DNA from: an uncultured bacterium
GTDB taxonomy: Bacteria; JAGRBM01; JAHCIT01
Direction: 5' to 3'
Assembly (NCBI GenBank): GCA_964565925.1
Contig: CAZMGV010000005.1
Span: 64,100-128,099, forward strand
DNA length: 64,000 nucleotides
The notes beneath the pieces were generated by a model. The model worked only from the letters and a program-made list of their open reading frames with translations. It did no database searches and was not told the DNA's origin. The translations under genes were made by a program, and so were the position numbers. Below are positions 9,968 through 43,738 of the stretch, piece after piece (within the stretch, counting starts at the first letter, position 1; each line of letters begins with the position of its first letter).

Positions 9968-11100
9968 GGCGCGGCCATCCCGATATGTACCCGCGGGACC
10001 CGGCGGGAGACGTTCGTGAATACTTCGTAGGTAATCGTACCCAGGCGTTCCGCCCATTCTTCGGCAGAGATCGCGGCGCTCCCGTCCGCCCCCAGCAGCA
10101 CGGCGGTGTCGCCCGCTTTGGCGGCGGGGACTTCCGTCACATCGGCCATGATAAGGTCCATGGAAACGCGGCCCACAATGGGCACGCGCTTCCCGCCGAT
10201 CACGACTTCGGTGCGGTTGGTGAGCGAGCGGACAAACCCGTCTGCATATCCTACGGCCAGAACCGCGATCCGCGAATCCCGTACGGCAGTCCACACTCCA
10301 CCGTACCCGACGGCGTCACCCGCATTGACCAATTTCACCTGACGGATACGTGCCTTCCAGACGAAGGCCGGCTCCAGAAGGATGTCGGTCCGGGTAGACG
10401 GAGACATATGGGCTCCATAGAGCATAATGCCGGGGCGGACGAGATCGTGCTGGGCCGCCGGAATCAGAATGGCGGCAGTCGAATTCGACAGATGACGGAA
10501 TAATCGCTTCTCAGAGATAGCCTCCACAAGGGTTACGGCCTCCCCGAAAACTTTGAGCTGTTTTTGGGTCAGGTCGGAGCCGGGTTCATCGGCCGCCGCC
10601 AGGTGGCTCATGATGCCTTCAAGCGACAGCCCTTCGCTCGCCATGATCTTTCGCGTGATGCGTTCCAGGTCTTGCGGGAGTACACCGAGCCGGTGCATGC
10701 CGGTATCAACTTTCAGGTGAACATGTACCCTGCGACCCCATTTGCGGCCTTCATAATCCAGCTTCTCGATCAGGTCCTCGTTGTACACCGCACACTGCAG
10801 GCTGAATTCGCGCACGGCCTCGGCTTCCTCCGGTTCGGCTCCGCCAAGCAGCAGAATTGGGGCCTGGATTCCGCCCATGCGGAGTTCAACGCCTTCTTCA
10901 AGGCGCGCCACACCGAGCCATTCGGCTCCGGCGCCAACCAGCGTTCGCGCTACCGGCACGGCACCATGGCCGTAGGCGTCCGCTTTGACGATACCCATGA
11001 CGGATACGCCGGGGGCCATACGGTCCCGGATGCGGTGGTAGTTGTTGAGGATCGCCCGCAGGTCGATCTCGACCCAGGTGGGGCGGGGCATCTCTTCCAT
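9961..11100 (-). CDS. alr: Alanine racemase
   Basis: The PLP-binding N-terminus is VKADAYGHG (the Lys-PLP motif). Typical downstream blocks include VSMD.IMADVT and a C-terminal ...NVSRRVPRVHI. The start is at MEEMPRPTWVEIDL (about 11100), or possibly 11121. Confidence 0.8.
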   Translation of the reverse strand: MEEMPRPTWVEIDLRAILNNYHRIRDRMAPGVSVMGIVKADAYGHGAVPVARTLVGAGAEWLGVARLEEGVELRMGGIQAPILLLGGAEPEEAEAVREFSLQCAVYNEDLIEKLDYEGRKWGRRVHVHLKVDTGMHRLGVLPQDLERITRKIMASEGLSLEGIMSHLAAADEPGSDLTQKQLKVFGEAVTLVEAISEKRLFRHLSNSTAAILIPAAQHDLVRPGIMLYGAHMSPSTRTDILLEPAFVWKARIRQVKLVNAGDAVGYGGVWTAVRDSRIAVLAVGYADGFVRSLTNRTEVVIGGKRVPIVGRVSMDLIMADVTEVPAAKAGDTAVLLGADGSAAISAEEWAERLGTITYEVFTNVSRRVPRVHIGMAAPW

Positions 11101-11263
11101 AAGATTGCAATAGAATACCACCGGACAGAGGGCGAGTGGTGTACCGAAATCATCCGGACATAGCCGGCGCGCGAGGCTAAATAAGAACCGATTTCAGCAA
11201 CCCGCCTTTGGTTCCATATGGCCATAGAACAGCTAGAATGATCACTGATCCGTCGGAAAGAGA

Positions 11264-13435
11264 TTGTTGGGGACAGTGCGAGCGCTCGTCGTCACCGGAA
11301 ACATCAGGCTTTCGGCCAAGTTGGCCGAGGTGCTCCAGCCGTTTGCGCCGCAAGTCGACCAGTGTGCCGATGGGGAGGCCGCCCTGCTCAGTTTTGAGCG
11401 TAATGACTATCAACTGCTGGTAACCGACCTGGCGCTTCCGAAGGTTGCGGGGCCCGAATTTATCCGCCGAATCCGGAGTCTGGACCGGGGGAAATCGGTC
11501 CCGATACTGTTCATGAGCCCGCCGCTGAAGGACAAAGGCTTGCCGCAACGACTGGCCCGTACCTATTCACTGAGTGCCTATCTTGAAATGCCGTTCCCGT
11601 TTCCGCGGTTTCTCGACGCTGCAAAGAAGGCAGTCGAAACGAATGGCCAGTCCCCTCGACCAGCATCCGGGCAGGTTTCGGCTTCTGTGCAATCAACGTC
11701 ACAGGCGCCTGGCCTGCAGCAGGTCCAGTCGGCCGTAGTCCCGGTAGCCGCGCCTCAACCGTTGCGGCCCGCTTCCGGACCCAGACAGATTTCCTGGGGT
11801 GTCGCGGGACCGGGTGTGCTGCCCAATCTGGAAGAGGTAATGCTACTCGTCCGTAACGAGGGCTTCACCTGCAAGGGCCGCCTGACCGGCGGGGGGAAAA
11901 TCGTTCCGGTCAATTTTCACAAGGGACTTCCGATGGCGGAGTTTACCGGTGCCGGGCATCCGATTCTGGAAGACCTGAACAAGTCCCAGGTGATCACTCC
12001 TCAAGAATTTGAACGCTTGCGAAAGATTTCGCCGCCCGCCGAAGTTGAACGGCTGCTTGTCGGTGCGGGTGTGCTGGCTCCGGGCGATCTCGCCAAACGG
12101 CGTGTGGAAATACTTGGTACGAGGCTTGGCGAGGCGCTCCGCTGGCCGCAGGGCGTTCTGACCGTGGAACCTCAGTCGGCCGATGCCGGACCGACCGAGC
12201 GCCTCTACGGCGAACTCGCTCTGGCCCATGCGGTTGCTCATGACGTGCGGGCGTCTACCAACCCGCTCAAGCTGGGCACGCTGCAGAACCAGCTTAAGAC
12301 AGCCTGGCTGGCACCCGGCAAGGAACTTCCGTATTTCGCGAGGCTTCTGCCACTGGATGCCGACGAGGAGCGGATCGTCGATCAGGTACAACGGCCTGTC
12401 GCCGTGCAGTCGATCGTGCAGAGCGTTCGTGACCCGGATACCGCCTGGAACGTGATCCGCATTCTGCTCGCGCTCCGGCTCGTGACCCGGCACGCGCAGA
12501 TGCCGCATGGCGTGACCGTCGAGTTCCCTCTTTCACTCAGGACCCTTCACAAGCCGAAAACGTCGGCAGAGGCCCGGAAAAATGTCGGCGATGATTCATT
12601 GGAGCTGATTGATATCTCCGGGGATCTTGCCGACGACCTGAACGATATTGTCGGCGACATCCGCCAGAAGGCGGCGCCGGCCGTTCCTGCGGCGGGCGGG
12701 CAGCAGTCGGATCTCCAGAAACTCGAGAACGAGCTGTTCGATGAGCTCGAGAAGGCCAAGAAGCTCAACTATTACGAACTGCTCGGCACCAAGAAAAACG
12801 GCTTCAGCTTTCAGGACGCCAAGAAGCGGTATTTCGAGGTTCAGCGCAAGTTCTCGCCCGACAAGTTCATCATGTCGTCCGGGGATGTCATGGGAAAGGC
12901 GCAGGAACTGCTCGAAAAGCTATCGGCCGCATTTGAGACGCTGTCGGATATCAAGAAGAAGGAGGCCTACGACCAGAAGCTCTCGCAGCAGAAGCTGATG
13001 AGCGGCGAGGGCGCCTCGGGCGGCAAGACGATTCAGGCGGACGTGGCCTACCAGAGCGGGCTTGCCTTGATGGAAGCGGACGAATGGGATTCTGCCATCA
13101 AGCAGTTCGAACTGGCCCGAAAAATACAGCCCGGTATCACGAACCACGAGGTTAACCATGCATGGGCGTTGTATAAAAATCCGAAGAACAAGGGCAATAC
13201 CACCGTTCTGGCCGAGGTGAAGAAAATGTTGAATGCGGCGGTCGTGCGCGATCCCCGGTGCGCCATCGGTTTCACCTATCGTGCGTGGCTACTTGTGGAC
13301 GAGGGCAAGGTCGATATTGCCGCCATGGAGTTCAGCAAGGCACTCCGGATTGATGCGAACCTGAAGCTGGCGCAGCAAGGCCTCCAGAAAGTGGAAGCGA
13401 TCCGCAAGACCCAAAAGAAAGGTCTGTTCGCGTGA
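11264..13435 (+). CDS. Multidomain protein: degenerate receiver-like N-terminal domain, central region of unknown function, J-like domain with a degenerate HPD motif (SPD), and C-terminal TPR repeats
   Basis: The N-terminus RALVVTGN...LLVTDLALPKVAG is receiver-like but lacks the acidic pocket. The J-like segment is KKLNYYELLGTKKNGFSFQDAKKRYFEVQRKFSPDKF. The C-terminal QADVAYQSGLALMEADEWDSAIKQFELARKIQP...AMEFSKALRIDANLKLAQQGL matches TPR. The start is TTG at 11264 or GTG at 11276. The stop overlaps the next gene by 4 bp. Confidence 0.55.
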   Translation: MLGTVRALVVTGNIRLSAKLAEVLQPFAPQVDQCADGEAALLSFERNDYQLLVTDLALPKVAGPEFIRRIRSLDRGKSVPILFMSPPLKDKGLPQRLARTYSLSAYLEMPFPFPRFLDAAKKAVETNGQSPRPASGQVSASVQSTSQAPGLQQVQSAVVPVAAPQPLRPASGPRQISWGVAGPGVLPNLEEVMLLVRNEGFTCKGRLTGGGKIVPVNFHKGLPMAEFTGAGHPILEDLNKSQVITPQEFERLRKISPPAEVERLLVGAGVLAPGDLAKRRVEILGTRLGEALRWPQGVLTVEPQSADAGPTERLYGELALAHAVAHDVRASTNPLKLGTLQNQLKTAWLAPGKELPYFARLLPLDADEERIVDQVQRPVAVQSIVQSVRDPDTAWNVIRILLALRLVTRHAQMPHGVTVEFPLSLRTLHKPKTSAEARKNVGDDSLELIDISGDLADDLNDIVGDIRQKAAPAVPAAGGQQSDLQKLENELFDELEKAKKLNYYELLGTKKNGFSFQDAKKRYFEVQRKFSPDKFIMSSGDVMGKAQELLEKLSAAFETLSDIKKKEAYDQKLSQQKLMSGEGASGGKTIQADVAYQSGLALMEADEWDSAIKQFELARKIQPGITNHEVNHAWALYKNPKNKGNTTVLAEVKKMLNAAVVRDPRCAIGFTYRAWLLVDEGKVDIAAMEFSKALRIDANLKLAQQGLQKVEAIRKTQKKGLFA

Positions 13436-14163
13436 TATCGATTGTTATCCCGGCGTACAATGAGGAGTCCCGGCTGCCGCCGACGCTGGACAGTTTCCTG
13501 GCGTATTTCAGGCAGCGGGGCGAACCATTCGAGCTGATTGTTGTGAATGACGGATCTAAGGACGGAACTGCGGACTTGGTACGAAGCCGAATGAAGGAAG
13601 CTCCTGAACTGCGGCTCGTCGATCAGCCAAAGAATGGCGGCAAGGGAAGTGCGGTGAAGGCGGGGTTGCTTGCGGCAAAAGGTGAGCTTTGGCTGTTCAG
13701 CGATGCCGATGAATCAACACCCGCAGAAGATTTCGCTGCTCTGAAGACGGCAATAGACGGCGGTGCGGATTTGGCGATGGGTTCCAGGGCGATCAAGGGA
13801 TCGAAACTCGAAATCCGGCAGTCGATTTACCGCGAACTGCTCGGCCGCTGCTTCAACCTGGTCGTGAGGATCATTCTCTGGGTCCCGTTCCGCGACACCC
13901 AGTGTGGGTTCAAGGTTATGCGAGCGGTGACAATGCGGCCGGTGATCGAGCAGCTTCGCACTCCGCACTTCGGGTTCGATTTCGAGATTGTCTACCGGGC
14001 ACACCGGAGAGGGCTGCAAATCGTCGAAGTGCCGGTCACCTGGCGTGATCGAGCCGGCAGCAAGGTGAATGTACTGCGCGACGGCATGATCATGGTGGGC
14101 AGTCTTTTCCGGATCCGGCAGATGGTCCGCCATGAACTGAAGGCGGCTCCTGAAAAGCGATGA
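13432..14163 (+). CDS. GT2-family polyprenyl-phosphate glycosyltransferase (DPM1/ArnC/GtrB/CsbB-like)
   Basis: MISIVIPAYNEE...ELIVVNDGSKDGT...LFSDADESTP (DXD) ...MGSR. This is the classic dolichyl/undecaprenyl-phosphate sugar synthase architecture. It is coupled by ATGA overlaps on both sides. Confidence 0.8.
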   Translation: MISIVIPAYNEESRLPPTLDSFLAYFRQRGEPFELIVVNDGSKDGTADLVRSRMKEAPELRLVDQPKNGGKGSAVKAGLLAAKGELWLFSDADESTPAEDFAALKTAIDGGADLAMGSRAIKGSKLEIRQSIYRELLGRCFNLVVRIILWVPFRDTQCGFKVMRAVTMRPVIEQLRTPHFGFDFEIVYRAHRRGLQIVEVPVTWRDRAGSKVNVLRDGMIMVGSLFRIRQMVRHELKAAPEKR

Positions 14164-16919
14164 CTCCCGGTACCGATCCTGCTCCCATGCAGGCCTCCGA
14201 ATTCGAGGCAATGGCGGCCGTTGAGGACCGCCATTGGTGGTTCCGCGGAAAACGAGAAATTGTCACGCACCTGCTGCGCAAGGCTGGCGTAACCGGAAAA
14301 ATCCTCGACGCGGGATGTGGCACTGGCGGAAACCTGCCCGCCCTGATGGAGTTCGGCGAAGCCGTTGGAGTTGAGAAAGATCCGGTTGCACTTGAATTCG
14401 CCCGTCGGAAACATGGCGGACAGGTTGTCCAGGGTGAAATGACGGCGCTGCCGTTCCTGGACAGCGAGTTTGACGGGATCATCACCACCGACGTGCTGGA
14501 ACATGTCCCCGATGACCGCAAATCGCTGTCGGAACTGGTCCGGGTGCTGAAGCCGGGCGGGACGCTGCTGCTTACGGTCCCGGCGCATCCGTTCATGTGG
14601 ACGGGCCATGATGTCGTGCTGGGGCATGCGCGGCGATATACGATCGAGAGCTTTCGGGCGCTACTCGCGACGTCGAGGGACGTCGACATCGAGAACGTCT
14701 CTTATATGAACTGTGCTGCGTTCCCAGCCGCGGCTGTACAGCGGTGGAGGCGGGCAAGGCGGGAGCATGCTGTTGGCAAACCGGATCTCACCAGCGACAC
14801 AGCCGATGTGCCGTCCGCTGCTGTGAACGAACTCGCCTTCGGGCTCTTTGCCGCGGAACGGTGGGTCCTCCCGCACTTTTCGCTTCCCTTCGGCGTGTCG
14901 ATTGTTGCCGTATTGCGGAAAAAAAAGGCAGTCGAGACGGAATACCCCGAAGCACACGGAGAGCCGTTACCCTTCGGCTGGCTGATGATAGCCGCTGCAA
15001 TGATGTTGCTATGCGCGCCAATCCTGACAGGCGAGTGGCTAAGCGGGCACGAAGGTCCGGCCTATCTGTTCCGTGCGGCCGAGTTTCATCGCCTGTTTGA
15101 GCAGGGTGCGTGGTATCCCAGATGGTGCGTCGATTTTTATTGGGGATATGGCTACCCGTTTTTTGTGTTCTACCCGCCAGGAGTTTTTTATCTGGCCTCC
15201 TTGTTTATGACGTTTGGTGCCGGTGCGGCGGCGGGCATACATATTGGAGCTGTAATCTCGAACCTGTTGATGGTGGTCGGCAGCTATCGCTTCGCATCAC
15301 TATTCACCCGGTCGCGTAGCGTTGCATTGGCTGCTGCCTTTGTAGCCTGCCTGGCAACATACCGTTTCGTCCAGTTTCACGTACGGACGGACTATGCCGA
15401 AGCTCTCGCGACCGGAATTCTACCATGGGTTCTGGTCGAAGCGACCATTCTGTGCCGTCGAAGCGATTTGCGGTCGGCAGGCCGGCTCGCGTTTCTTCTG
15501 GCGGCCGTATTTTACTCACACACTATCACTGCGGTGATCACTAGTGCCTGTTTGGGATTGATGGGATTGGCGATGATTTCCCGGCGCCGGCCCGCCGGGT
15601 TCTGGCGGATCGGGTTGGCTTCTGCGGCCGGGCTTGTGCTGGCCGCTGCATACTGGGTCCCGGCAATGCTGGAACAGAAATATGTCAATGCGGAAAAGTT
15701 GATCGAAAAATCCTCTGTCATCAACTACGACTACGCGGATCACTTCCTTTATTTAAGCCAGCGGTTCAAGGGTGACTTTCTATATGGGGTATCGGTATCT
15801 GGACCAAACGATACAATGCCGTTCTCGAGTTCATGGCTCTTCTGCTCATTGGGGGGGGCGGCCATTTTCATGCTGCTGTTCCGGCCGGAATGGCGCCGTA
15901 AACACTGGCCGGTTGTAACCAGCTGGCTGATGGCCAATTTCATGATGTTCGAGCCATCCATCTGGCTTTGGAGACATCTGCCGCTATTGAAATTTTTCCA
16001 GTTTCCCTGGCGCTTTCTGCTCCTGGATGCGGTGATGGCGGCTCCACTAACTGCCATCGTTTTGGATGAGGCGATTCGGTGGAAAAAGCCTGACCGGATA
16101 GTCGTTGGACTGTTATGGACGTGCCTCATAATTGCGGCTGGATTTTATTTCAGCTTTGCGGTCAGGGACACGTTCTGGATTGCCTTTTCAGGCGTACACC
16201 GGAACTCCACCGTGGTCGGCTGGTATTGGCCGTGGGTGTCATGCGCTGCTCTATTCGCAATGCTCGTCATCTTTTTGCTGGGTTCCGGGCATGTTCATCA
16301 TTATCTCCGGATCGTGGTGATCGGAGCGTTCCTGTTCGCGCTGCCCTGCTCGGTCTCGTCACTGCTCAAGGCGATGTACACGCCCATGAAAATAGACAAT
16401 GATCTCGCGCAGGCAATAGAAGAGCCCCTGTATATGCAACGCTATGGCGTCGTAACGCCTCTGGGTAATATCGTCCCGGTCGTTACTGCCGCGCAGGATG
16501 AATATCTGCCGAAGACGGCACATGTTGATCCTGCAGTCCCTCCCAAAGCGCCTGCACGGATCGCATCGGGTTCCGGAACAGCCGTAATGGATAACCAATA
16601 CGGGGATCGGCGGATATACAACGTTAATATGGAAACTCCCGGCCGGTTCGAGGCGGCTTATTTTTACTATCCGGGAGTTCGCTTGAGTGCGGACGGAGTT
16701 GAGAGGGAACCGGAGATTGGACCAGACGGATCCGTAATGACCGATCTGGATGCCGGTCCTCATCGCATCGAGGTTTGGTATCAGGGTTCAAGGATACAGG
16801 CGATTTCCGGGGCAGTCAGCCTGGTCGGGTTTATTTGCGTTTCCATAATGTATTTCTTGAAGTTCTACGGATCGAAATATCGGTCATCTCCGAATGTCGA
16901 CGGAGATTCGGATCAATGA
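14160..16919 (+). CDS. Fusion protein: N-terminal class I SAM-dependent methyltransferase (~230 aa) plus a large polytopic GT-C-like (YfhO/PMT/ArnT-like) membrane glycosyltransferase domain
   Basis: The methyltransferase motifs are ILDAGCGTGGNLPAL (motif I), DGIITTDVLEHV and LKPGGTLLLTVP. More than 10 predicted TM helices follow, with a first-loop motif HEGPAYLFRAAEFHRLFEQGAWYPRWCVDFYWGYGYPFFVFYPPG that is conserved in the downstream paralog. The C-terminal soluble region is ~250 aa. Confidence 0.6.
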   Translation: MTPGTDPAPMQASEFEAMAAVEDRHWWFRGKREIVTHLLRKAGVTGKILDAGCGTGGNLPALMEFGEAVGVEKDPVALEFARRKHGGQVVQGEMTALPFLDSEFDGIITTDVLEHVPDDRKSLSELVRVLKPGGTLLLTVPAHPFMWTGHDVVLGHARRYTIESFRALLATSRDVDIENVSYMNCAAFPAAAVQRWRRARREHAVGKPDLTSDTADVPSAAVNELAFGLFAAERWVLPHFSLPFGVSIVAVLRKKKAVETEYPEAHGEPLPFGWLMIAAAMMLLCAPILTGEWLSGHEGPAYLFRAAEFHRLFEQGAWYPRWCVDFYWGYGYPFFVFYPPGVFYLASLFMTFGAGAAAGIHIGAVISNLLMVVGSYRFASLFTRSRSVALAAAFVACLATYRFVQFHVRTDYAEALATGILPWVLVEATILCRRSDLRSAGRLAFLLAAVFYSHTITAVITSACLGLMGLAMISRRRPAGFWRIGLASAAGLVLAAAYWVPAMLEQKYVNAEKLIEKSSVINYDYADHFLYLSQRFKGDFLYGVSVSGPNDTMPFSSSWLFCSLGGAAIFMLLFRPEWRRKHWPVVTSWLMANFMMFEPSIWLWRHLPLLKFFQFPWRFLLLDAVMAAPLTAIVLDEAIRWKKPDRIVVGLLWTCLIIAAGFYFSFAVRDTFWIAFSGVHRNSTVVGWYWPWVSCAALFAMLVIFLLGSGHVHHYLRIVVIGAFLFALPCSVSSLLKAMYTPMKIDNDLAQAIEEPLYMQRYGVVTPLGNIVPVVTAAQDEYLPKTAHVDPAVPPKAPARIASGSGTAVMDNQYGDRRIYNVNMETPGRFEAAYFYYPGVRLSADGVEREPEIGPDGSVMTDLDAGPHRIEVWYQGSRIQAISGAVSLVGFICVSIMYFLKFYGSKYRSSPNVDGDSDQ

Positions 16920-18886
16920 TATCCGGCAAGGATGTCGTGAACGTTGGCCAAGGAGTTTCTGGCGAGTTGCCTGAGCATGCTCTCCTCTTGCGGATACTTT
17001 TGGTCGGCTTACTGATTTTAACAGCGGCGATCCCTTTCCTCTGCTGTGCCTGGTACGAAACGCATGACGGGTTGACGTACGCAGTGAGGGCCGCCGAGTG
17101 GTCTTACCAGTTTCAGAGCGACGGCGTTTACCCCCGGTGGGCATCGAACTTTTACTGGGGATTCGGATATCCGGTTTTCAACTACTTCCCTCCGCTCGCG
17201 TACTTTCTCGGTCATCTCGTCATGCTCTCGGGACTGACGGCACCGGCAGCCATCAGATGTATCGAGCTCGCGGCTTTTCCGCTCGCGTTTTTCGGATTGT
17301 TCAGGCTTTGCCGCCTGTATGTCGACTCACAGAGCGCTTTTGTCGCATCGGTCGCCGGAATGCTCGTCCCGTACCGGCTCGTTGATGTCTACGTCCGCGG
17401 GGATCTGGCGGAGTCTCTTGCGTTCGCACTGTTCCCGTTCGTGCTGGCGGAAGCGGTTCTCTGTTCCCGTCGTTCCCATATCCGGGACGGTTTCAGGCTG
17501 GCCGTATCGCTTGCTCTCGTTTTCTATGCTCATACGCTCACGTCATTCATGTGCTCAATCGCGCTGGCGGTATTCGGTCTCTATCAATTGCGGTTTCGCC
17601 GTTGGGGCGGCTTCTTCCGGATCGGTGGCTGGAGCGCAGTGGGGCTGTGCCTGTCAGCGGCCAGCTGGAGTCCGGCTGTCATTGAACGCAAATACGTCAA
17701 TGTAAATGTGGCCACGCATGCACGCGAATTCTATTCTTACTTCTGGGGCGATCACTTCCTCGAATGGTGGCAACGATTCGATCCTTCATTCGGTTTCGGG
17801 CCGTCCGTGGCAGGACCGGCCGACCAGATGAATTTCATGATCAGCTTTGTGATCCTGGGGGCGCTGATCTGGGCCATAATATCCCTGAAGACGCCTGAAG
17901 GCCGGAGCCGGTACGGCGTATTGCTCGCCGCATTTGCTGCAGTTCAGTTAATGATGCTTGGGATCTCACGTCCTCTGTGGGCACACGTTCCATTTTTCCC
18001 TTTTTTCCAGTTCCCCTGGCGTTTCCTGATTCTCGACTCAATTCTGGGCACGCTGGTTCTGGCAAAAGTTCTGGAAGAACTTTCTCCCGGGAGATGGCAG
18101 ACGCTTTATCTGGCACCGGTCATGGCCACCGGCGTGGGTATTGCGGCTGTCATTTTCAAAACGCCATGGACCGGTCTGTCCGGAACACCTGCGGTCTGGC
18201 TCGGAGCGATCGCGGCGGTGGCAGCCGTGCTGACGGTAGTTCGATATAAGGGGCTGGATCGCTGGGCGCTTCTGGCGCTATGGGCGATTACGGTCCCGGT
18301 GATGGCAAGTGTCGTCGGGCACGCACAGAAAACGGAATTTCCGTCGGCGGTGATCTGGCATAATCCGAGTTTTACCGACCCGGTAATTAGGGAGCAGACT
18401 ACGCTTCGCCGCCGCGACGGCGTGATGGAGCCCCTTCAGACGACCGGCACGAACGAGTTCCTTCCGCTTACAGCCGATCCTCCGCCGATTGAAGCCATGC
18501 GCGCCGTTGTACAATTCGAAGGGCAATTGGAGGGCGCTGCATACAAGCTGGTGGAACGGACTGGTACCAGGAGGATGTGGGAGGTCGTCACACCATCGAC
18601 CCAGATGGTGCTGCTACCGATATTTTTCTTCCCCGGCATGTCAGTCGAACTGAACAGTCAGGCAGTTGCTCCGCTGCCGGGAAAATACGGGCTGCTCCGG
18701 GTCTCGGTTCCTCCCGGGCTCAACCAGGTGGCTGTTCATTACGACGGAACCGCTGTGCAGCATCTGAGCGAACTGGTGTCGCTGGTATCGGTCATTCTGC
18801 TGGCGGGATTGTGGGTGCTGGTGCGGATACGCGAGCGGGTCCAGGGCGAGGTGGATGGTTCGAGTCAGGGAGTGGCGGGGAAGTAG
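16916..18886 (+). CDS. GT-C-like polytopic membrane glycosyltransferase (paralog of the membrane domain of the upstream fusion protein)
   Basis: Shared motifs with 14160..16919 include HDGLTYAVRAAEWSYQFQSDGVYPRWASNFYWGFGYPVFNYFPPLAYF and FFQFPWRFLILD. The start (MISGKDV...) overlaps the upstream stop in an ATGA. The 703-aa track ORF begins 141 nt earlier, inside the upstream gene. Confidence 0.6.
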   Translation: MISGKDVVNVGQGVSGELPEHALLLRILLVGLLILTAAIPFLCCAWYETHDGLTYAVRAAEWSYQFQSDGVYPRWASNFYWGFGYPVFNYFPPLAYFLGHLVMLSGLTAPAAIRCIELAAFPLAFFGLFRLCRLYVDSQSAFVASVAGMLVPYRLVDVYVRGDLAESLAFALFPFVLAEAVLCSRRSHIRDGFRLAVSLALVFYAHTLTSFMCSIALAVFGLYQLRFRRWGGFFRIGGWSAVGLCLSAASWSPAVIERKYVNVNVATHAREFYSYFWGDHFLEWWQRFDPSFGFGPSVAGPADQMNFMISFVILGALIWAIISLKTPEGRSRYGVLLAAFAAVQLMMLGISRPLWAHVPFFPFFQFPWRFLILDSILGTLVLAKVLEELSPGRWQTLYLAPVMATGVGIAAVIFKTPWTGLSGTPAVWLGAIAAVAAVLTVVRYKGLDRWALLALWAITVPVMASVVGHAQKTEFPSAVIWHNPSFTDPVIREQTTLRRRDGVMEPLQTTGTNEFLPLTADPPPIEAMRAVVQFEGQLEGAAYKLVERTGTRRMWEVVTPSTQMVLLPIFFFPGMSVELNSQAVAPLPGKYGLLRVSVPPGLNQVAVHYDGTAVQHLSELVSLVSVILLAGLWVLVRIRERVQGEVDGSSQGVAGK

Positions 18887-19152
18887 TAGACAATTTCGCC
18901 GGGCTTCACCATCCCGAGATCATCCCGGGCAATGGTTTCCACATATGTCATGTCATTCTTGAGGCGTTCGCGTTCGCGGTCGAGCGAGGCTATGCGCTCT
19001 TTCATGGAGCCGACACGTTCTTCGACCCGGCGCAACTCCCGTCGTTCGTAAAACAGCTCGGAACCGTTACGCGCAAGGTGCCAGAATAACGCCAGCGAAC
19101 CGAGCGTTCCGACCGATACCATGATCCAGCGTCGCCACATCGTAGAAATCAT
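18865..19152 (-). CDS. ftsB: Septum formation initiator family protein (FtsB/DivIC-like)
   Basis: A single TM helix is followed by a coiled coil and the typical C-terminal YVETIARDDLGMVKPGEIVYYF. Its stop is convergent with the GT-C gene's and overlaps it by ~22 bp. Confidence 0.6.
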   Translation of the reverse strand: MISTMWRRWIMVSVGTLGSLALFWHLARNGSELFYERRELRRVEERVGSMKERIASLDRERERLKNDMTYVETIARDDLGMVKPGEIVYYFPATP

Positions 19153-19309
19153 CTTTATCAGTTTCCGGGATTCACCGTCAAGTGTTTGATTTAATTGGGA
19201 GATTCCCGTTTCTTATGGAGTCGGTTATGGAGACGGGCTATCGTGGGGTTTACGCCTCTCCAATGGACGGGTATAAAGCCGTTGATCTGGATCAGTTGGA
19301 GGAGCCGCC

Positions 19310-19861
19310 TTGAGCGAGGAACAGTCATTCGTGAAACGCCGCCACATGTTCATCGAGCCCCAGGAGCAGACCGTATTTATGGTTCGTGCCTGGATATATT
19401 GCCTCATATTCTTCGGCGTGGCCTTCACGATCATCTACCACCCAGGCCCCCAGTGGCAGCTTTCGGACGCCCAGCGGGCGACCAACCAGTTCCTTTTCTA
19501 TCACGCAGACAAATGGCCGTGGCTGATCCTTCCGTTCGCATTGGTCGGACTGGTATCTGTTATCGGCAGCCACCGGATATTCGGACCGGTACTGGGTCTC
19601 AAGAATACGATCCGGCGCGTGCTGGACAAGGACCTGTCGGTACACTTCAGCGGCCGGCCGGGCGATCATTTCGAGGAGCTGGCCATTCTGGTGAACCAGC
19701 TGGTCGATCAGAACCGTAACGACATGAAAACCCTCAAGAACATCTCGCAGCAGGTCAAGACGGATCTGGCAGCCGGGCGCACGGCCGAAGCCGCGGCCGG
19801 GGTCAACCGGCTGGTTGACGAACTCGCCAAGTACCGCCTAGAGTTCAAGCAAGATGGCTGA
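19310..19861 (+). CDS. Hypothetical membrane protein (two TM helices plus a HAMP-like helical cytoplasmic tail)
   Basis: 183-aa ORF. Two hydrophobic segments (WIYCLIFFGVAFTIIY, WLILPFALVGLVSVIG) are followed by amphipathic helices. I recognise no family. Confidence 0.4.
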   Translation: MSEEQSFVKRRHMFIEPQEQTVFMVRAWIYCLIFFGVAFTIIYHPGPQWQLSDAQRATNQFLFYHADKWPWLILPFALVGLVSVIGSHRIFGPVLGLKNTIRRVLDKDLSVHFSGRPGDHFEELAILVNQLVDQNRNDMKTLKNISQQVKTDLAAGRTAEAAAGVNRLVDELAKYRLEFKQDG

Positions 19862-26015: not shown

Positions 26016-26953
26016 GCCTTGCCGTCGGTAGCTACCGGAACGTTCAGAGCAGGTAGGTCGGACCACAGGCAGGTCCACAGAGCCGACGGTTTCACAGGAT
26101 CGTCGTCATCGGTCACCAGCCACAAGCGGGTTCCCGGGCCCTCTGACTCTGCCCATAACCCTTCGACCTTGAGCGGCGGCGATAGCCAGTGCAGTGCGGT
26201 GACGGCGTGGCCATCGAGAATGCCGATGGCGGAACCGCTCACGGCACCGTCCTCATAGGTGCTGGCTGAATTTTCCGCGACGGCGGTAAAGAGCAGACGT
26301 CCTCCCGGCAGGGCGAATCCGTCGGTGAACGACAGCGGGCCTTTATCCTCCGGCAGCTTCACCGCTTCCGACTGGACGAGGCAGTTTCCGGTCACTCGTC
26401 CGCTCGCAGCCTCCGATCTGAACCGGTTCAGGTCCAGATGCAGCAGGCCGTTTTGGCCGGCCCGGCCGTTACCGCGCTGAAACAGGATCAACCGGTCGTC
26501 ATGGACGGCCGCCCCTTCGATATTGAGTTCGGGGAACTGCCGGGCTGCCGAGATATAGAGTTCTGCCAGCTCCACCTGATGGATTCCGGTTGGTTCGCCG
26601 CTGGCATCGAGCCGGACCAGCGCTGCGCGGGTGCGGCTCGGGGTGGAGCCGGACGGGATAGCCAGCAGCTCCGAATTGCCGTTCGGCAAGGGCAGGAGTG
26701 CGAGCGCTTCCAGGTCGGGCTTGCGGCGTTTGCGGTCCCGCTTGTCCAGCGGCAGTTCGCCCTGAAGGATACGGAACCCCCGGCCCGGAGCGGAGCCTTC
26801 ACGGGGAAACACCCCCAGATGCAGCTCGTCGTCGGCCACGACGTATATGTGCGACCGGGTCATGGCGAGTCCGCTCGCGGCCGAAATAAACGGACGCCGC
26901 CCGGCCGACATCGGCTGGGTCAGATCGAGCAGACGAAGGCGGACAGGGTTCAT
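25796..26953 (-). CDS. Hypothetical protein (possible beta-propeller). It is third in the adenylate-cyclase operon. The 3-prime boundary is uncertain.
   Basis: The start overlaps the cyclase stop (ATGA at 26950-26953). The N-terminal two-thirds look protein-like (SHIYVVADDELHLGVF, LLAIPSGST, AAVHDDRLILFQRGNG). The last ~70 aa are low-complexity and overlap the convergent oxidoreductase by ~220 bp, so the true stop may be earlier or there may be a frameshift. Confidence 0.35.
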   Translation of the reverse strand: MNPVRLRLLDLTQPMSAGRRPFISAASGLAMTRSHIYVVADDELHLGVFPREGSAPGRGFRILQGELPLDKRDRKRRKPDLEALALLPLPNGNSELLAIPSGSTPSRTRAALVRLDASGEPTGIHQVELAELYISAARQFPELNIEGAAVHDDRLILFQRGNGRAGQNGLLHLDLNRFRSEAASGRVTGNCLVQSEAVKLPEDKGPLSFTDGFALPGGRLLFTAVAENSASTYEDGAVSGSAIGILDGHAVTALHWLSPPLKVEGLWAESEGPGTRLWLVTDDDDPVKPSALWTCLWSDLPALNVPVATDGKAQAAFRDTTTLPSARTAAWRPLANAASAIIASVPAQSPATNRLSIPGTAGPGLPVTPPSSDVTSRWVTTSFGR

Positions 26954-28650
26954 GACGCGGGCAGGGTGACGCCTTCGATAAACGCCACAACCTCTCTGGG
27001 TATTGAGGTGAACCGGATTTCGTGAAGACCACTGCTATTTCCGTCGGATACCGGCATGACCTTGGCGTAGATGTCTAGCCGGTCCAGATGACTGCTGACT
27101 TCATGCAGGTTCAGCTTGAGGTTGCTAAGTGTTTCCATTTTTGAGTCTGAACGTACCGTCACAGCCTGCGCGGAGATGGCAATGATCTCAAGATGAAACC
27201 GGTCGTCGTTAACCGTCTTCCCGTCTACCAGCGAGGCCACAAAGCGTAGCGGACGGACTGGCGGACGTGGTGTGGTGGTGTGACGGTTCAGGACACAGCT
27301 GAATTCGCCGCCCACGCCGCCGATCTCATAGATGGCGAGCGGGTGGCTGGCTCCTTTGGGCATGATTTCCATCCGGCCATCGATTCTGATCAGTCCCTTA
27401 GATTCATCAATTACAGACTGGGAAGCCAGAATCTGCCCGCCCACCGTATAGGATTCGATCCGGCTTGCCATATTCACGCCGCTACCGACGACTGTATATT
27501 TGCTCCGGCGGCTGGATCCGATATTGCCTACCACGACTTCTGCGTCGTTTATTCCAATACCCATCTCCAATGCGGGAAGCCCGTTCGCCTCGTTCCGCTG
27601 GTTCACAGCCGCCATGGCATTCTGCATTTCAACGGCGCAGGCGGTGGCCCTGAGCGCCCGGTCGGGCATCTCATGGGGCGCTCCGAAGATGACGAGCAGG
27701 GCGTCACCGATGATTTCGTTTACAGTTCCGTGATGCCTGAAGACGACTTCCACCATAATTTCATAATAGTCATTCAGCATACGGACGAAGGTTTCGGCGG
27801 GAATCCGTTCCGCAAGTGCGGTGAATCCGCGCAGGTCAGTCATCAGGATGCTCACCCGCCGGCGATGCCCGCCCATTTCAAGGGCGGCCGGGTTTTCGAT
27901 CAGCGCGTGCATGACTTCGGGAGCCAGATACCGTCCGAACATCTTCTTCAGGAATCCGGAGAGTTCGGTTACCTGTTCCTCGCGTTCCTTCCAGCGGGCG
28001 AAAATATAGGAACTCACCAGGATAATGGCAGCGGAGAGTGTCACCGGGACCAGGAAGATGACCACCGTGCCGGCTGGTGGAATGAGAAGGTGTCCGTCCT
28101 CAAATGGTGCACGCCGCAGCCAGGGCGCATAGGGAATCCATCCGGCAATCTGCGCCACGGTGGTGCCTGTCAGGATGATCAGGGCAGTGAGGCCGCTCAG
28201 GAGCACCGGTCGTAAGCCGAACATGAGGAGGCTGATTGAGAGGCCTCCCAGGGCGACGACCCAGACAGGTGTAGTGATCGTGCCGGTGAAATAGATGACG
28301 AGCCCCGTATGAACCGCCGTCCCTTGTAGAAACAGGTGGAGCACTAACGGGTTTTCCGGGTCCCGCCTGCGAAGCAGAAGCCCGGCCACAATGACCGTCG
28401 CCATGAAAATACTGGTGATCGCATAAAACGGTTTAAGAATCTGCTCAGCGAATTCCCAGTTTACGAGGTCGCTGAAATAGGTGGCTTCGCTTCCCTTCCA
28501 CACGATGAGCCAGCCGGCCACAACCCACGGAAATGCGATGCTTGAGCAGAGTACGCACCGGTCCACCAGCGGCCAGTCAAGCGGGTTAAAGAGCCATGAT
28601 TTGCGGCCCGCTGCCATGCCCGGCTGAACTGGATGGATGGAAGCCGCCAC
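26950..28650 (-). CDS. Membrane-anchored class III adenylate/guanylate cyclase (6 TM + CHD catalytic domain + C-terminal domain of unknown function)
   Basis: ~6 N-terminal TM helices. The cyclase homology domain is VSILMTDLRGFTALAE...GTVNEIIGDALLVIFGAP...VGIGINDAEVVVGNIGSSRRSKYTVVGSGVNMASRIES. A ~150-aa C-terminal extension follows. Confidence 0.8.
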   Translation of the reverse strand: MAASIHPVQPGMAAGRKSWLFNPLDWPLVDRCVLCSSIAFPWVVAGWLIVWKGSEATYFSDLVNWEFAEQILKPFYAITSIFMATVIVAGLLLRRRDPENPLVLHLFLQGTAVHTGLVIYFTGTITTPVWVVALGGLSISLLMFGLRPVLLSGLTALIILTGTTVAQIAGWIPYAPWLRRAPFEDGHLLIPPAGTVVIFLVPVTLSAAIILVSSYIFARWKEREEQVTELSGFLKKMFGRYLAPEVMHALIENPAALEMGGHRRRVSILMTDLRGFTALAERIPAETFVRMLNDYYEIMVEVVFRHHGTVNEIIGDALLVIFGAPHEMPDRALRATACAVEMQNAMAAVNQRNEANGLPALEMGIGINDAEVVVGNIGSSRRSKYTVVGSGVNMASRIESYTVGGQILASQSVIDESKGLIRIDGRMEIMPKGASHPLAIYEIGGVGGEFSCVLNRHTTTPRPPVRPLRFVASLVDGKTVNDDRFHLEIIAISAQAVTVRSDSKMETLSNLKLNLHEVSSHLDRLDIYAKVMPVSDGNSSGLHEIRFTSIPREVVAFIEGVTLPAS

Positions 28651-41628: not shown

Positions 41629-42096
41629 TCAGCAGGCCACCTTGATGGGTTCGGCCAGGTTTTCGTTCAGAAGTTCGGGGAACTCGCCCATATCCGGGTC
41701 GAGCACTTCGCGCCGGGTCTTGGGCAGACATTCCGCGCGAAGGAGCTTGTTGTCGATCAGGTACATAAGGTCGTTCTTCGACATGTACAGGTCCACGCCG
41801 AAGTCGGCCGCATGGAAGGGGTCGGGCGACTCGGGATTGGCCGTGGCGACGATCGTGAACGGATTGTGATCCGCGCCGAACGGAGGCCGGAGCCGGCTGC
41901 ACAGTTCGATACCGGTCATTCTCGGCATGAACTCGTCGGCGATCACGAGGTCGGGGCGCAGCAGCGACGCAATCTTGATTGCGTCGTGGCCGTCTGTGGC
42001 CGTCCACACCTCGTAGCCCTCCCTCGAGAGCTGCTGGTCGATGATCTTCTGGAAAAACGGGTTGTCATCCGCGACTAATACTTTGAACTTTTTCAT
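41629..42096 (-). CDS. Single-domain response regulator (CheY-like receiver)
   Basis: MKKFKVLVADDNPFFQKII...DLVIADEFMPRMTGIELC...TIVATAN has the canonical DD, D, T and K positions. The start is at the internal Met of the 166-aa track ORF. Confidence 0.7.
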   Translation of the reverse strand: MKKFKVLVADDNPFFQKIIDQQLSREGYEVWTATDGHDAIKIASLLRPDLVIADEFMPRMTGIELCSRLRPPFGADHNPFTIVATANPESPDPFHAADFGVDLYMSKNDLMYLIDNKLLRAECLPKTRREVLDPDMGEFPELLNENLAEPIKVAC

Positions 42097-42298: not shown

Positions 42299-43738
42299 TC
42301 AGGACTCTTTCGGGGGGTCTTCGGAGTCTTCCGGGAGCGTGCTACCCGACTGGAATTTCTGGTACAGGCGGCGAAAATTGCTGCGGTCCATCCCGGCTAC
42401 CTCGGCCGCCTTGGTCATGCTGTTGCCTGTAAGCTTCATGACGTGTTCGATATACGCGAGCGTGATCCGGGCAAGGTGGCGGTCCTTCACGTCCTGGTAG
42501 GGACCGTCGAGGTTTTCCGCGGTGCCGGTGCCATTGCCGCCTGAACCGGAAGCCGGAACGCGAACGGTCCCCTGGAAATCGACGAGATTGCTCTTTGAAA
42601 GCACGACGGCCCGTTCGACCGCGTTCTTGAGTTCGCGGATATTGCCGGGCCAGCTGTGCGACAGCAGGAAGTTCAAGGCGTCGGGGCTGAACCCCTCCGC
42701 CCGTTTCTGGTACTTGCGGGCAAACTGGTTCAGGAATACATGGGCGATCAGCTCCACGTCGCCGGGTCTTGAACGCAAGGGCGGCACTTCGATGCGGATG
42801 ACGTTGAGCCGGTAGTAGAGGTCCTCCCTGAACCGCTTTTCCTTTACCTCCTTCTCGAGGTTCCGGTTCGTCGCGGAGATGATCCGTACATCTACCTTGC
42901 GGGTGTCGGAACTGCCGACCCGGCGGATCTCCCCTTCCTGGAGGGTGCGCAGCAGTTTGGCCTGCATTGGAAGCGGCAGTTCGCCCATTTCGTCCAGAAA
43001 CAGCGTACCGCCGTTCGCGGTTTCAAAGAGCCCGGCGCGGGCCCGGTCGGCGCCGGTGAACGAACCCTTCTCGTGGCCGAACAGTTCGGCTTCAAAGAGC
43101 GTTTCCGTGAAAGCCGAACAGTTGGCGACAACGAAGGGGGCGGATTTGCGGTTGGACCGGTCGTGCAGCGCACGGGCGATCAGTTCTTTCCCTGTGCCGC
43201 TCTCGCCCGTGACCAGGACCGGTACATCGGTGGGGCCGGCCACTTCGATCAGACTGCGGATTTCCTCGATGGCCGGGCTCTGTCCCAGCAGGATCGAGGC
43301 GACGGTCGAGCCGCCCCGCTCCAGCTCCACGGCCTTGCGCCGCAGATGAACGAGTTCGGCCGCCCGGTGCAGAACCATCAGAAGCCGCTCATTGTCGAAC
43401 GGTTTCATGATGTATTCGTAGGCACCCTGACGCACCGCCTTCACGGCTTCCGGTACGTCACCATGAGCCGTGATGAAGATCACTTCCGGATCACCGGGCA
43501 GGCGCCGGTAGTCGTTCAGGGCATCAAGACCCGTCCGCCCTGGCATGGAGACATCCGAAATAATCACATCCGTCTGAAGGTTCGCCAATCCCTGCAGGGC
43601 GTCGGCGACGGACGAGAACGTGTGTGTCTCGTAGCCGTTGGCATCCAGCACGCGCTTGTACAGGCCCAGAATCGCCTTCTCGTCGTCGATAAGCGCCACA
43701 ATTGTAGGGGAAGCGTTCTCCGGCACCTTCATCTCCAT
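42299..43738 (-). CDS. Sigma-54-dependent transcriptional response regulator (NtrC family: REC + AAA+ + Fis-type HTH)
   Basis: REC is IVALIDDEKAIL...DVIISDVSMPGRTG. The sigma54-interaction domain has GESGTGKELIARALH, GAFTGA and ESELFGHEKGSFTGA. The C-terminal HTH is YIEHVMKLTGNSMTKAAEVAGMDRSNFRRLYQKF. The start is at MEMKVPEN. Confidence 0.85.
   Translation of the reverse strand: MEMKVPENASPTIVALIDDEKAILGLYKRVLDANGYETHTFSSVADALQGLANLQTDVIISDVSMPGRTGLDALNDYRRLPGDPEVIFITAHGDVPEAVKAVRQGAYEYIMKPFDNERLLMVLHRAAELVHLRRKAVELERGGSTVASILLGQSPAIEEIRSLIEVAGPTDVPVLVTGESGTGKELIARALHDRSNRKSAPFVVANCSAFTETLFEAELFGHEKGSFTGADRARAGLFETANGGTLFLDEMGELPLPMQAKLLRTLQEGEIRRVGSSDTRKVDVRIISATNRNLEKEVKEKRFREDLYYRLNVIRIEVPPLRSRPGDVELIAHVFLNQFARKYQKRAEGFSPDALNFLLSHSWPGNIRELKNAVERAVVLSKSNLVDFQGTVRVPASGSGGNGTGTAENLDGPYQDVKDRHLARITLAYIEHVMKLTGNSMTKAAEVAGMDRSNFRRLYQKFQSGSTLPEDSEDPPKES

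Follow-up and report, generated by a model that had tools for sequence, protein, structure and literature searches.

What might be made by a locus in which a methyltransferase is built into a membrane-embedded sugar transferase, and in which the first gene encodes a degenerate signal receiver? The question is raised by four consecutive plus-strand genes, g1 to g4, in a 64,000-nucleotide stretch of DNA from an uncultured bacterium (the window; all coordinates refer to it). Their ORFs are all found in the sequence and together span 11264-18886. An earlier note, made from the letters alone, had joined them by ATGA overlaps at three junctions. A 4-nt start/stop overlap is present at each, and reads ATGA at 14160-14163 (g2/g3) and 16916-16919 (g3/g4), but the g1/g2 junction at 13432-13435 reads GTGA, so that g2 starts with GTG. 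(A technical note: g1 is 723 aa long, while its public annotation begins 4 codons downstream, giving 719 aa; in the mechanical ORF list g4 begins further upstream, with a TTG at 16775; a GGAG stands 10 nt before the ATG at 16916, and g4 orthologs start 8-56 nt from the g3 stop.) Overlaps of 4 nt are frequent in bacterial operons and are evidence for co-transcription only. The overall reading of that note (a lipid-linked sugar synthase, a pair of GT-C transferases and a fused methyltransferase) is supported by the analysis, and g1-g4 probably constitute one operon for extracytoplasmic glycosylation of the "multi-component transmembrane glycosylation" kind.

Table 1. Features of the g1-g4 locus (window coordinates; res, residues)
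Feature	Position	Strand	Basis or detail
g1, putative cytoplasmic scaffold or regulator	11264..13435	+	pseudo-receiver, middle domain, J-like domain, TPR
g1 receiver-like domain, res 5-128	11276..11647	+	alignment A3, motif coordinates, Foldseek
g1 middle domain, res 174-413, possibly PATAN/PatA_N-like	11783..12502	+	aligned with homologs' PF14332 region
g1 J-like domain, res 480-578	12701..12997	+	Pfam DnaJ; FSPDKF at 12851-12868
g1 TPR region, res 585-720	13016..13423	+	Pfam TPR_2, TPR_14, TPR_16
g2, TM-less GT2, putative polyprenyl-phosphate hexose synthase, 243 aa	13432..14163	+	Pfam, solved relatives
g2 motif IPAYNEE	13447-13467
g2 motif NDGSKDGT	13546-13569
g2 motif DAD, in SDADES	13699-13716
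g3 N-terminal class I SAM methyltransferase domain, res 1-257	14160..14930	+
g3 methyltransferase motif I, LDAGCGTGG	14304-14330
g3 methyltransferase acidic residue, in GVEKD	14367-14381
g3 methyltransferase, other motifs	14484-14507, 14547-14570
g3 GT-C membrane core, res 272-740	14973..16379	+	~13 TM helices
g3 first outside loop	15045-15179
g3 core motif YRFVQFHVRTDYAE	15360-15401
g3 core motif FFQFPWRFLLLD	15993-16028
g3 C-terminal beta-sandwich, res 741-875 (predicted periplasmic), last TM res 878-908, short tail	16380..16919	+
g4, second GT-C paralog, 656 aa	16916..18886	+	PF10131, identity to g3
g4 loop	17060-17194
g4 motif YRLVDVYVRGDLAE	17372-17413
g4 motif FFQFPWRFLILD	18002-18037

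The assignment of g2 to the DPM1/ArnC type of GT2 enzyme holds: it matches Pfam Glycos_transf_2 at 97.7 bits, retains the DAD motif, has its best solved relatives in the Pyrococcus Dol-P-Man synthase (5mlz; E 5e-19, residues 2-211) and ArnC, and counts Dol-P hexose transferase and AglJ among its top NCBIfam matches. By its sequence it fits the polyprenyl-phosphate sugar synthase type of GT-A/GT2 protein. No hydrophobic segment is found in g2, and TM helices that would anchor the GT-A domain are likewise lacking in 12/12 cleanly delimited g2-like partner ORFs of other loci (243-285 aa; a 13th, L001, was set aside as an over-extended ORF). As a peripheral, DPM1-like enzyme, g2 would load a hexose from a nucleotide sugar onto polyprenyl phosphate at the cytoplasmic face of the membrane.

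The proposed paralogy of the next two products is borne out: the C-terminal part of g3 and g4 are 31% identical over 655 columns (E 7e-77), far above chance, and g4 orthologs are 45-66% identical. The motifs singled out in both, H-(E/D)-G, RAAE, PRW and FYWG(Y/F)GYP in the first loop (g3 residues 296-340, g4 residues 49-93) and FFQFPWRFL (g3 612-623, g4 363-374), are real and are invariant, or almost so, in 27 family members. Placement by HMM is less uniform: g4 belongs to PF10131 (PTPS_related, GT-C clan CL0111; 33.9 bits against a gathering cut-off of 26.4), but the suggested YfhO family (PF09586) is missed (17.9 bits against 28.5), and the C-terminal part of g3 taken alone scores below both cut-offs (8.8 bits for PF10131, 9.6 for YfhO). 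The GT-C part of g3 has ~14 helices in total, as does g4, and residues 741-875 of g3 form a beta-sandwich in the AF2 secondary structure. The soluble methyltransferase precedes TM1 and all K/R-rich loops lie on its side of the membrane; helix parity and the positive-inside rule therefore agree in placing the conserved motifs and the beta-sandwich outside and, as anticipated, the methyltransferase in the cytoplasm. The outcome is a polytopic, GT-C-fold putative transferase with its catalytic loop outside.

Might g3 and g4 merely have the shape of GT-C enzymes, and no glycosyltransferase role? In PF10131 no member has been assayed and no structure solved, and the C-terminal part of g3 has no Pfam match above cut-off; yet the GT-C fold is predicted at high confidence, acidic and basic residues are invariant in the first outside loop, where GT-C active sites are located, and GT-C genes of this kind are recurrently linked to a lipid-sugar-synthase-like GT2. 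We consider the proposition very improbable. Use of some other donor (a polyprenyl-diphosphate oligosaccharide, for example), or action as polymerases, with g2 employed in another step, is also decidedly unlikely: GT-C genes of this family consistently have as partner a monosaccharide-loading GT2 of DPM1 type, a Pfam scan of neighbouring ORFs gave no Wzx, Wzy or phosphoglycosyl transferase, the window holds no small polytopic ORF, and the invariant columns of alignment A1 include no WWDXG-type motif. As glycosyltransferases supplied by g2, g3 and g4 would transfer sugar to a periplasmic or outer-membrane acceptor, and would either each serve a different position or pair up as a heterodimer in the manner of Pmt1-Pmt2 or EmbA-EmbB.

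How would the loaded sugar reach them? In the whole 64-kb window no small ORF with at least 3 TM helices, as expected of a GtrA- or Wzx-type flippase, is found. Flippase genes are frequently unlinked, so the missing gene leaves the mechanism possible; the flippase would be encoded outside the window. Acceptor, sugar-nucleotide and polymer-export genes are absent from the neighbouring ORFs that were scanned.

The N-terminus of g3 has a Rossmann-type fold, a GxGxG motif I and an acidic residue after strand 2. That a class I SAM methyltransferase is fused in-frame to a GT-C protein is thus confirmed, with SAM-binding motifs intact; since these are conserved throughout the fused clade, catalysis is argued for. 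Held at the cytoplasmic face beside the first helix of the transferase, the domain would most likely methylate the lipid-linked sugar ahead of flipping, which is the weakest link of the scheme. One can also imagine, more tentatively, that its substrate is something else close to the membrane (the polyprenyl carrier, a phospholipid head group, or an acceptor awaiting export) or that it serves mainly to dock g2. Its structural matches are generic class I enzymes, phosphatidylethanolamine/phosphoethanolamine N-methyltransferases as well as sugar O-methyltransferases (RebM) among them, and no curated family was reached; g2 has no anchor, and GacI/GacJ provide a precedent for a soluble GT-A that requires a membrane partner (PMC8035078). 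Both alternatives sit less easily with the conservation of the SAM-binding motifs and with the Pirellulales locus L058, in which methyltransferase, GT2 and GT-C are three separate adjacent genes; the fusion, moreover, puts the methyltransferase just where the lipid-linked donor is produced. Methylation of that donor is the reading retained below.

How general is the arrangement? The four-gene order recurs in 4-5 independent assemblies (49-75% protein identity), as a single system would have it, but four syntenic relatives also have the upstream alr-mlaEFD in common, and the conserved order is therefore partly phylogenetic inertia. Of 105 long loci (each at least 12 kb) with PF10131-type GT-C genes, 58 have a g2-like GT2 no more than 8 kb away: the GT2 plus GT-C module is not rare. 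The methyltransferase-GT-C fusion is: in a set of 1.84 billion representative proteins, a single cluster at 50% identity spans both parts. Methyltransferases like that of g3 occur in ~9 more loci beyond the window's clade, a co-occurrence of ~9% that amounts, by rough estimate, to a modest excess over chance, this methyltransferase family being abundant.

The architecture of g1 was read correctly: Pfam matches (Response_reg, 37 bits; DnaJ, 32.5 bits against a cut-off of 27.8; TPR_2) and alignment A3 agree on a degenerate receiver, a J-like domain of SPD type and TPR repeats. No TM helix or signal peptide was noted in g1. The AF2 model has pLDDT 70-93 by domain, with an all-helical TPR region (pLDDT ~90), and the receiver fold is CheY-like (Foldseek TM 0.88). 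The active site has been altered: Asp55 (VTDLAL) and Ser85 are kept, TGN replaces the DD pair and Met109 (YLEMPF) replaces the Lys, changes that are common to g1 and three close orthologs. With the acidic pair and the Lys missing, the receiver is, as judged from these residues, non-phosphorylatable. Three distant homologs (P0114, P0115 and L009) retain DD, D, S and K. The J-like domain carries FSPDKF in place of the HPD tripeptide, as do its close orthologs, and activation of Hsp70 is unlikely; in alignment A3 HPD is retained by P0114 only. An HMM search of g1 itself with PF14332 gives no match and hhalign only a weak one to PATAN (21.7% probability, E 1e-3); the three distant homologs match PF14332 in the region aligned to the middle domain (best E 1.6e-21). 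Such a protein is probably neither a response regulator nor a co-chaperone of the classical kind, and would rather regulate or position the machinery.

Does g1 belong to the glycosylation system at all? Its orthologs (60-72% identity) stand at the equivalent position in 4 related contigs. Possibly it is a scaffold for polarity or signalling, of the type of the PATAN receivers, that is merely co-transcribed with g2-g4, a view on which we would put rather less than even weight: g1-like genes are present in only 8 of the 105 long GT-C loci, a g1-like REC-PatA_N-TPR protein (L170) has GlnE and OmpA-type genes but no GT-C in its neighbourhood, and PATAN receivers with a described role work on the divisome and on the motors of type IV pili. 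The 4-nt overlap with g2 speaks for the functional connection, as does the recurrence of the pairing in a second, high-GC lineage (L009, L173, L174), where REC-PatA_N-DnaJ(-TPR) genes overlap an operon upstream of GT-C genes like the C-terminal part of g3, although the middle gene and the flanking genes are different. Operon linkage of g1 is thus a matter of observation, and its part in glycosylation would be regulatory or positional.

Which known system does the locus resemble? In CsbB/GtcA/YfhO and GtlA/GtcA/GtlB of Bacillus, Listeria and S. aureus, teichoic acids are modified by multi-component transmembrane glycosylation (PMC8035078). Common to these systems and, by prediction, to this locus are a GT-A/GT2 enzyme that makes a C55-P-sugar and a polytopic GT-C protein that transfers it outside; the YfhO match of g4 is weak, and for some relatives (P0138, P0206) the C-terminal region of YfhO brings the score above the cut-off of that family. 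In contrast, TM helices are lacking in g2, the surroundings hold no GtrA-type flippase gene, g3 and g4 miss the YfhO cut-off and belong with PF10131, and neither a methyltransferase nor a g1-type partner is part of those systems. Teichoic acid is an unlikely acceptor here because the host is Gram-negative, as its Mla system indicates. The closest precedent for an anchor-less g2 is GacI/GacJ/GacK/GacL, which builds the GlcNAc side chain of the S. pyogenes group A carbohydrate: a soluble GT-A requires a membrane partner, and GT-C transfer follows (PMC8035078). The window, however, has neither a GacJ-like small membrane protein nor a Wzx gene, its GT-C proteins are of another family, and a fused methyltransferase is found in g3 and not in Gac.

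Other systems also invite comparison. ArnC, of the lipid A aminoarabinose pathway, has C-terminal TM helices, unlike g2; arnA, arnB, arnD, arnE and arnF are absent here, and identity to ArnT is 11-15%. With DPM1/Ppm1 and PMT of eukaryotes and actinobacteria there is no PMT or PMT_2 Pfam match and no MIR domain, g3 and g4 ending instead in a beta-sandwich and a terminal helix. TfpW, a pilin arabinosyltransferase, was compared alongside these PMT protein O-mannosyltransferases. SAM-dependent methylation of sugar on a polyprenyl carrier at the cytoplasmic face is known from Haloferax AglJ/AglP/AglS and E. coli WbdD; there the methyltransferase is a protein of its own and its substrate an oligo- or polysaccharide, whereas that of g3 is fused to GT-C and its donor is probably a monosaccharide. 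With PATAN response regulators (PatA, PixG/PixH, TaxP) the distant g1 homologs share REC plus PatA_N (PF14332); the differences are the order (REC, then PATAN), the added J-like and TPR domains and, in g1 itself, the lack of a PF14332 match and of the receiver DD pair and Lys.

Most likely, g1-g4 are a variant of known multi-component transmembrane glycosylation, its unusual part being a methyltransferase fused to a transferase. A bolder version would have a monosaccharide methylated on polyprenyl phosphate by the GT-C-fused enzyme and delivered pre-methylated to an envelope target, with a REC/PATAN-like/J-like/TPR scaffold switching or positioning the machine and so linking glycosylation of the envelope with signalling for polarity or motility. 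It is rather unlikely as a whole, although it is consistent with the location of close GT-C relatives within a flagellar export operon or beside an outer-membrane beta-barrel-like protein. The practical value is moderate, the host being uncultured and the logic of lipid-linked sugar to GT-C already well established. What the operon offers for PF10131, a large GT-C family, is testable hints on how its members work: 1) the donor probably comes from a small, TM-less DPM1-like GT2; 2) a methyltransferase may modify that donor; 3) the g3 fusion settles the membrane topology. With its REC-PATAN-J protein the operon adds a candidate regulator of a glycosylation machine, a role not known to have been described. 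PF10131 genes form tandem arrays in Patescibacteria and are common in Chloroflexi, Planctomycetes and Myxococcota-like MAGs.

The four plus-strand genes g1 (receiver/J-like/TPR protein), g2 (GT2 enzyme), g3 (methyltransferase-GT-C protein) and g4 (second GT-C protein) form an operon, bordered upstream by a divergent alanine racemase gene and downstream by a convergent ftsB/divIC gene. The earlier note had joined all four by ATGA start/stop overlaps: read directly, the junctions at 14160-14163 and 16916-16919 are just that, but the one at 13432-13435 is GTGA, so that g2 must start with GTG. Overlaps of 4 nt are frequent between bacterial genes; they indicate co-transcription, not function. A consensus scan of 10900-19400 for promoters and terminators yields no operon boundary, since its counts are no better than those for shuffled sequence. 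No glycan-related genes were found around the operon in a Pfam scan of neighbouring ORFs, the matches there (FGE-sulfatase, MlaD, DivIC, amine oxidase, adenylate cyclase) being of the housekeeping kind.

Coordinates of the operon genes and of the ~230-aa protein gene of a second g1/GT-C lineage
Feature	Sequence	Coordinates	Strand	Remark
g1 ORF	window	11264-13435	+	
g2 ORF	window	13432-14163	+	start codon GTG
g3 ORF	window	14160-16919	+	
g4 ORF	window	16916-18886	+	
~230-aa protein	L009	7334-8026		between REC-PatA_N-DnaJ and GT-C genes, overlapping both
~230-aa protein	L173	6334-7026		between REC-PatA_N-DnaJ and GT-C genes, overlapping both
~230-aa protein	L174	6277-6963		between REC-PatA_N-DnaJ and GT-C genes, overlapping both

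Two features of the surrounding DNA can be mentioned here. G+C falls to its window minimum (0.552 vs ~0.60, with strongly negative AT skew) at 16001-18000, where g3 ends and g4 begins; because the locus is syntenic in relatives, this is probably an effect of membrane-protein codon composition rather than a sign of foreign DNA. Signalling genes are abundant: tblastn finds at least five more receiver-domain genes (near 41797-42096, 43397-43699, 47454-47816, 53011-53370 and 55990-56328), and an adenylate/guanylate cyclase gene lies at 26953-28650.

The assignment of g2 as a DPM1/ArnC-type GT2 enzyme holds: its Glycos_transf_2 match (97.7 bits) passes Pfam, it has a DAD metal-binding motif, and its best solved relatives are the Pyrococcus dolichyl-phosphate-mannose synthase (E 5e-19, residues 2-211 aligned), then ArnC. 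The best NCBIfam matches (Dol-P hexose transferase, AglJ) are all far under their cut-offs, and g2 contains no hydrophobic segment. The in-frame fusion claimed for g3 is equally clear. Residues 1-257 form a class I SAM methyltransferase domain (Methyltransf_11, 76 bits) in which motif I and the acidic residue are intact, and the remainder, which like g4 has the GT-C fold, is a paralog of g4 (31% identity over 655 columns, E 7e-77), as had been supposed. By its Pfam score (33.9 bits; cut-off, 26.4) g4 classes as a member of PF10131, a family of the GT-C clan whose function is unknown (PMC7801869). The families suggested for g3 and g4 are thus right in part: g4 falls within the GT-C clan, but neither protein reaches the cut-off for YfhO, and neither is a YfhO member by Pfam criteria; the C-terminal part of g3 alone is below every Pfam cut-off (PF10131, YfhO). 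There are no solved structures among the sequence relatives of the GT-C parts, whether sought with single sequences or with a profile of the GT-C family alignment, and the literature yielded no functional study of PF10131, its PTPS-related name or methyltransferase/GT-C fusions.

The first-loop motif that g3 and g4 share extends to the family: H-E-G, RAAE, PRW and FYWGYGYP are invariant or nearly so in 27 members that include both paralog lineages, and g3 and g4 are accordingly both likely to be active, to judge by these residues. From an alignment of 53 sequences, AlphaFold2 models the membrane part and the C-terminal domain of g3 with pLDDT >90; its methyltransferase part is modelled poorly because few of the aligned sequences cover it. 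The methyltransferase requires SAM and must therefore be cytoplasmic, so that the loop which follows the first helix and bears these conserved residues lies outside, as the earlier note had predicted. In the modelled topology that follows, every K/R-rich loop lands on the cytoplasmic side, and the FFQFPWRF loop and a C-terminal beta-sandwich (residues 741-875), followed by the last helix, land outside.

The prevalence of this arrangement can be gauged from 169 loci fetched around relatives of the GT-C domain in species-representative genomes and metagenomes, with counts made on the 105 that span 12 kb or more. A g2-like GT2 gene lies within 8 kb of the GT-C gene in 58 of these, and tandem GT-C paralogs (two to four) are present in 78, above all in Patescibacteria/Microgenomates. 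Of thirteen sampled partner ORFs of the g2 type, the 12 that are cleanly delimited encode TM-less proteins of 243-285 aa (the script over-extended the other, at L001, upstream). On these grounds, a small anchor-less DPM1-like GT2 with one or more PF10131 GT-Cs is a widespread unit, and the operon in the window is one version of it. Tandem arrays of two to four PF10131-type GT-C paralogs occur at L018-L089 and L095-L169 (e.g., L020, L027, L028, L069), in Patescibacteria/Microgenomates and other MAGs, usually a few kb from one or two GT2 genes of the TM-less g2 type.

Beyond the window's clade, about nine loci have a methyltransferase like the N-terminal domain of g3 in the vicinity. On a Pirellulales contig (L058, 4683-8540), three adjacent genes on one strand encode such a methyltransferase (33% identity), a GT2 and a GT-C of PF10131-like type: an unfused counterpart of g2-g3 in which the order of the first two genes is reversed. 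By a HMMER scan of 1.84 billion representatives, free-standing methyltransferases of this kind are very numerous, and the ~9% co-occurrence exceeds chance, by rough estimate, only modestly; the methyltransferase link is supported by it but not proved.

The fusion itself is rare. In 5.8 billion proteins searched with a word index, methyltransferase-GT-C proteins number only four: that of the window and three others at 49-58% identity. When 1.84 billion cluster representatives are scanned exhaustively with HMMER, a single cluster spans both parts of g3, all other matches covering residues ~270-900 or ~10-255, never both. The fusion is not an assembly artefact, being present at that level of divergence in independent NCBI, Logan and JGI assemblies. 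The conserved neighbourhood anticipated for it exists, with a reservation: all fusion-bearing contigs have the identical four genes in identical order, the g2/g3 overlap included, but they also have alr-mlaEFD upstream in common, so that this conservation partly reflects simple relatedness. The fusion is limited to one small uncultured clade. An unfused GT-C (L093, 1805-5214) is 49% identical to the C-terminal part of g3, as close as the fused orthologs, and the fusion may consequently have been gained or lost recently; upstream of that gene there is no methyltransferase, GT2 or g1, and a thermolysin-type M4 peptidase gene is found instead. The longer relatives of the methyltransferase domain (P0143, P0149, P0150, P0176 and P0212; 450-540 aa), candidates for further methyltransferase-GT fusions, proved to be tandem methyltransferase-methyltransferase proteins.

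The description of g1 as a degenerate receiver joined to a J-like domain and TPR repeats is confirmed by Pfam matches to Response_reg, DnaJ and TPR. Aligned with its relatives, the receiver retains the phospho-acceptor Asp, with TGN in place of the acidic pair and Met in place of Lys; the J-like domain has SPD for HPD. Distant homologs retain the acidic pair and Lys, HPD being kept in P0114 only, and have a PatA_N/PATAN domain (PF14332) in the region aligned with the middle domain of g1. The hhalign match of that middle domain to PATAN is weak (21.7%), and Foldseek matches to the g1 model are of CheY type only, none of PATAN type.

A second lineage, beyond the window's clade (L009, L010, L015, L017, L173, L174; ~72% GC, different flanking genes), has g1-like genes (REC, PatA_N and DnaJ, in some cases TPR too) immediately upstream of genes for GT-Cs like that of g3 and overlapping the operon. 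The middle gene there is not a GT2 but one for a conserved ~230-aa protein, 53-67% identical between loci, that has no Pfam match and no homolog in the window. With its signal peptide, beta-barrel-like alternating pattern and C-terminus (...QIRY/QVRY) ending in Y, it is a candidate outer-membrane partner or acceptor. That g1 is functionally linked to the glycosylation genes is close to an even bet. Against the link, one g1 homolog, P0115, which was considered as a GT-C neighbour, has no GT-C beside it. At L170 (8001-16477), a REC-PatA_N-TPR gene, glnE, a second PatA_N-DnaJ-TPR gene and an OmpA-domain gene stand in a row, with no GT-C; the PATAN/J/TPR proteins of that genome are paralogous and clustered.

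How might the operon work? 1) g2 would make a polyprenyl-phosphate hexose. 2) An unlinked flippase would move the lipid-linked sugar across the membrane. 3) g3 and g4 would transfer the sugar to an acceptor outside. 4) Most tentatively, the fused methyltransferase might methylate the lipid-linked sugar; AglP and WbdD, methyltransferases that act on lipid-linked glycans, are precedents for such a step. ArnC/ArnT and DPM1/PMT are among the systems that supply the logic of this scheme. So are CsbB/YfhO and GacI/GacL-type systems (PMC8035078). The classical three-component transmembrane glycosylation system has an anchored GT-A and a linked flippase, whereas g2 has no anchor and the 64-kb window holds no small polytopic ORF as a flippase candidate; the GacI-type variant fits g2-g4 better. 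The core logic is already known; the methyltransferase-GT-C fusion and its g1 partner are new.

GT-Cs closely related to that of g3 also turn up in quite different settings. The gene for P0005 (38% identity) is flanked by flhB and flhA within a flagellar export operon (L005/L006, 8001-9956; L013, 8001-9752) with the order fliOP, fliQ, fliR, flhB, GT-C, flhA, ParA-family ATPase gene (likely flhG), sigma-70-family sigma factor gene (likely fliA); at L013, a FliO-FliP fusion gene lies upstream of the GT-C. This placement suggests that, in the lineage concerned, glycosylation in the periplasm is tied to the flagellar apparatus. Another close relative lies within a radical-SAM/epimerase/PMT_2 cluster. 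At L014 (5012-9881), the gene for a 990-aa Ser/Thr protein kinase-AAA_16 (STAND-like) protein overlaps the start of the GT-C gene: another signalling protein coupled to this GT-C subfamily.
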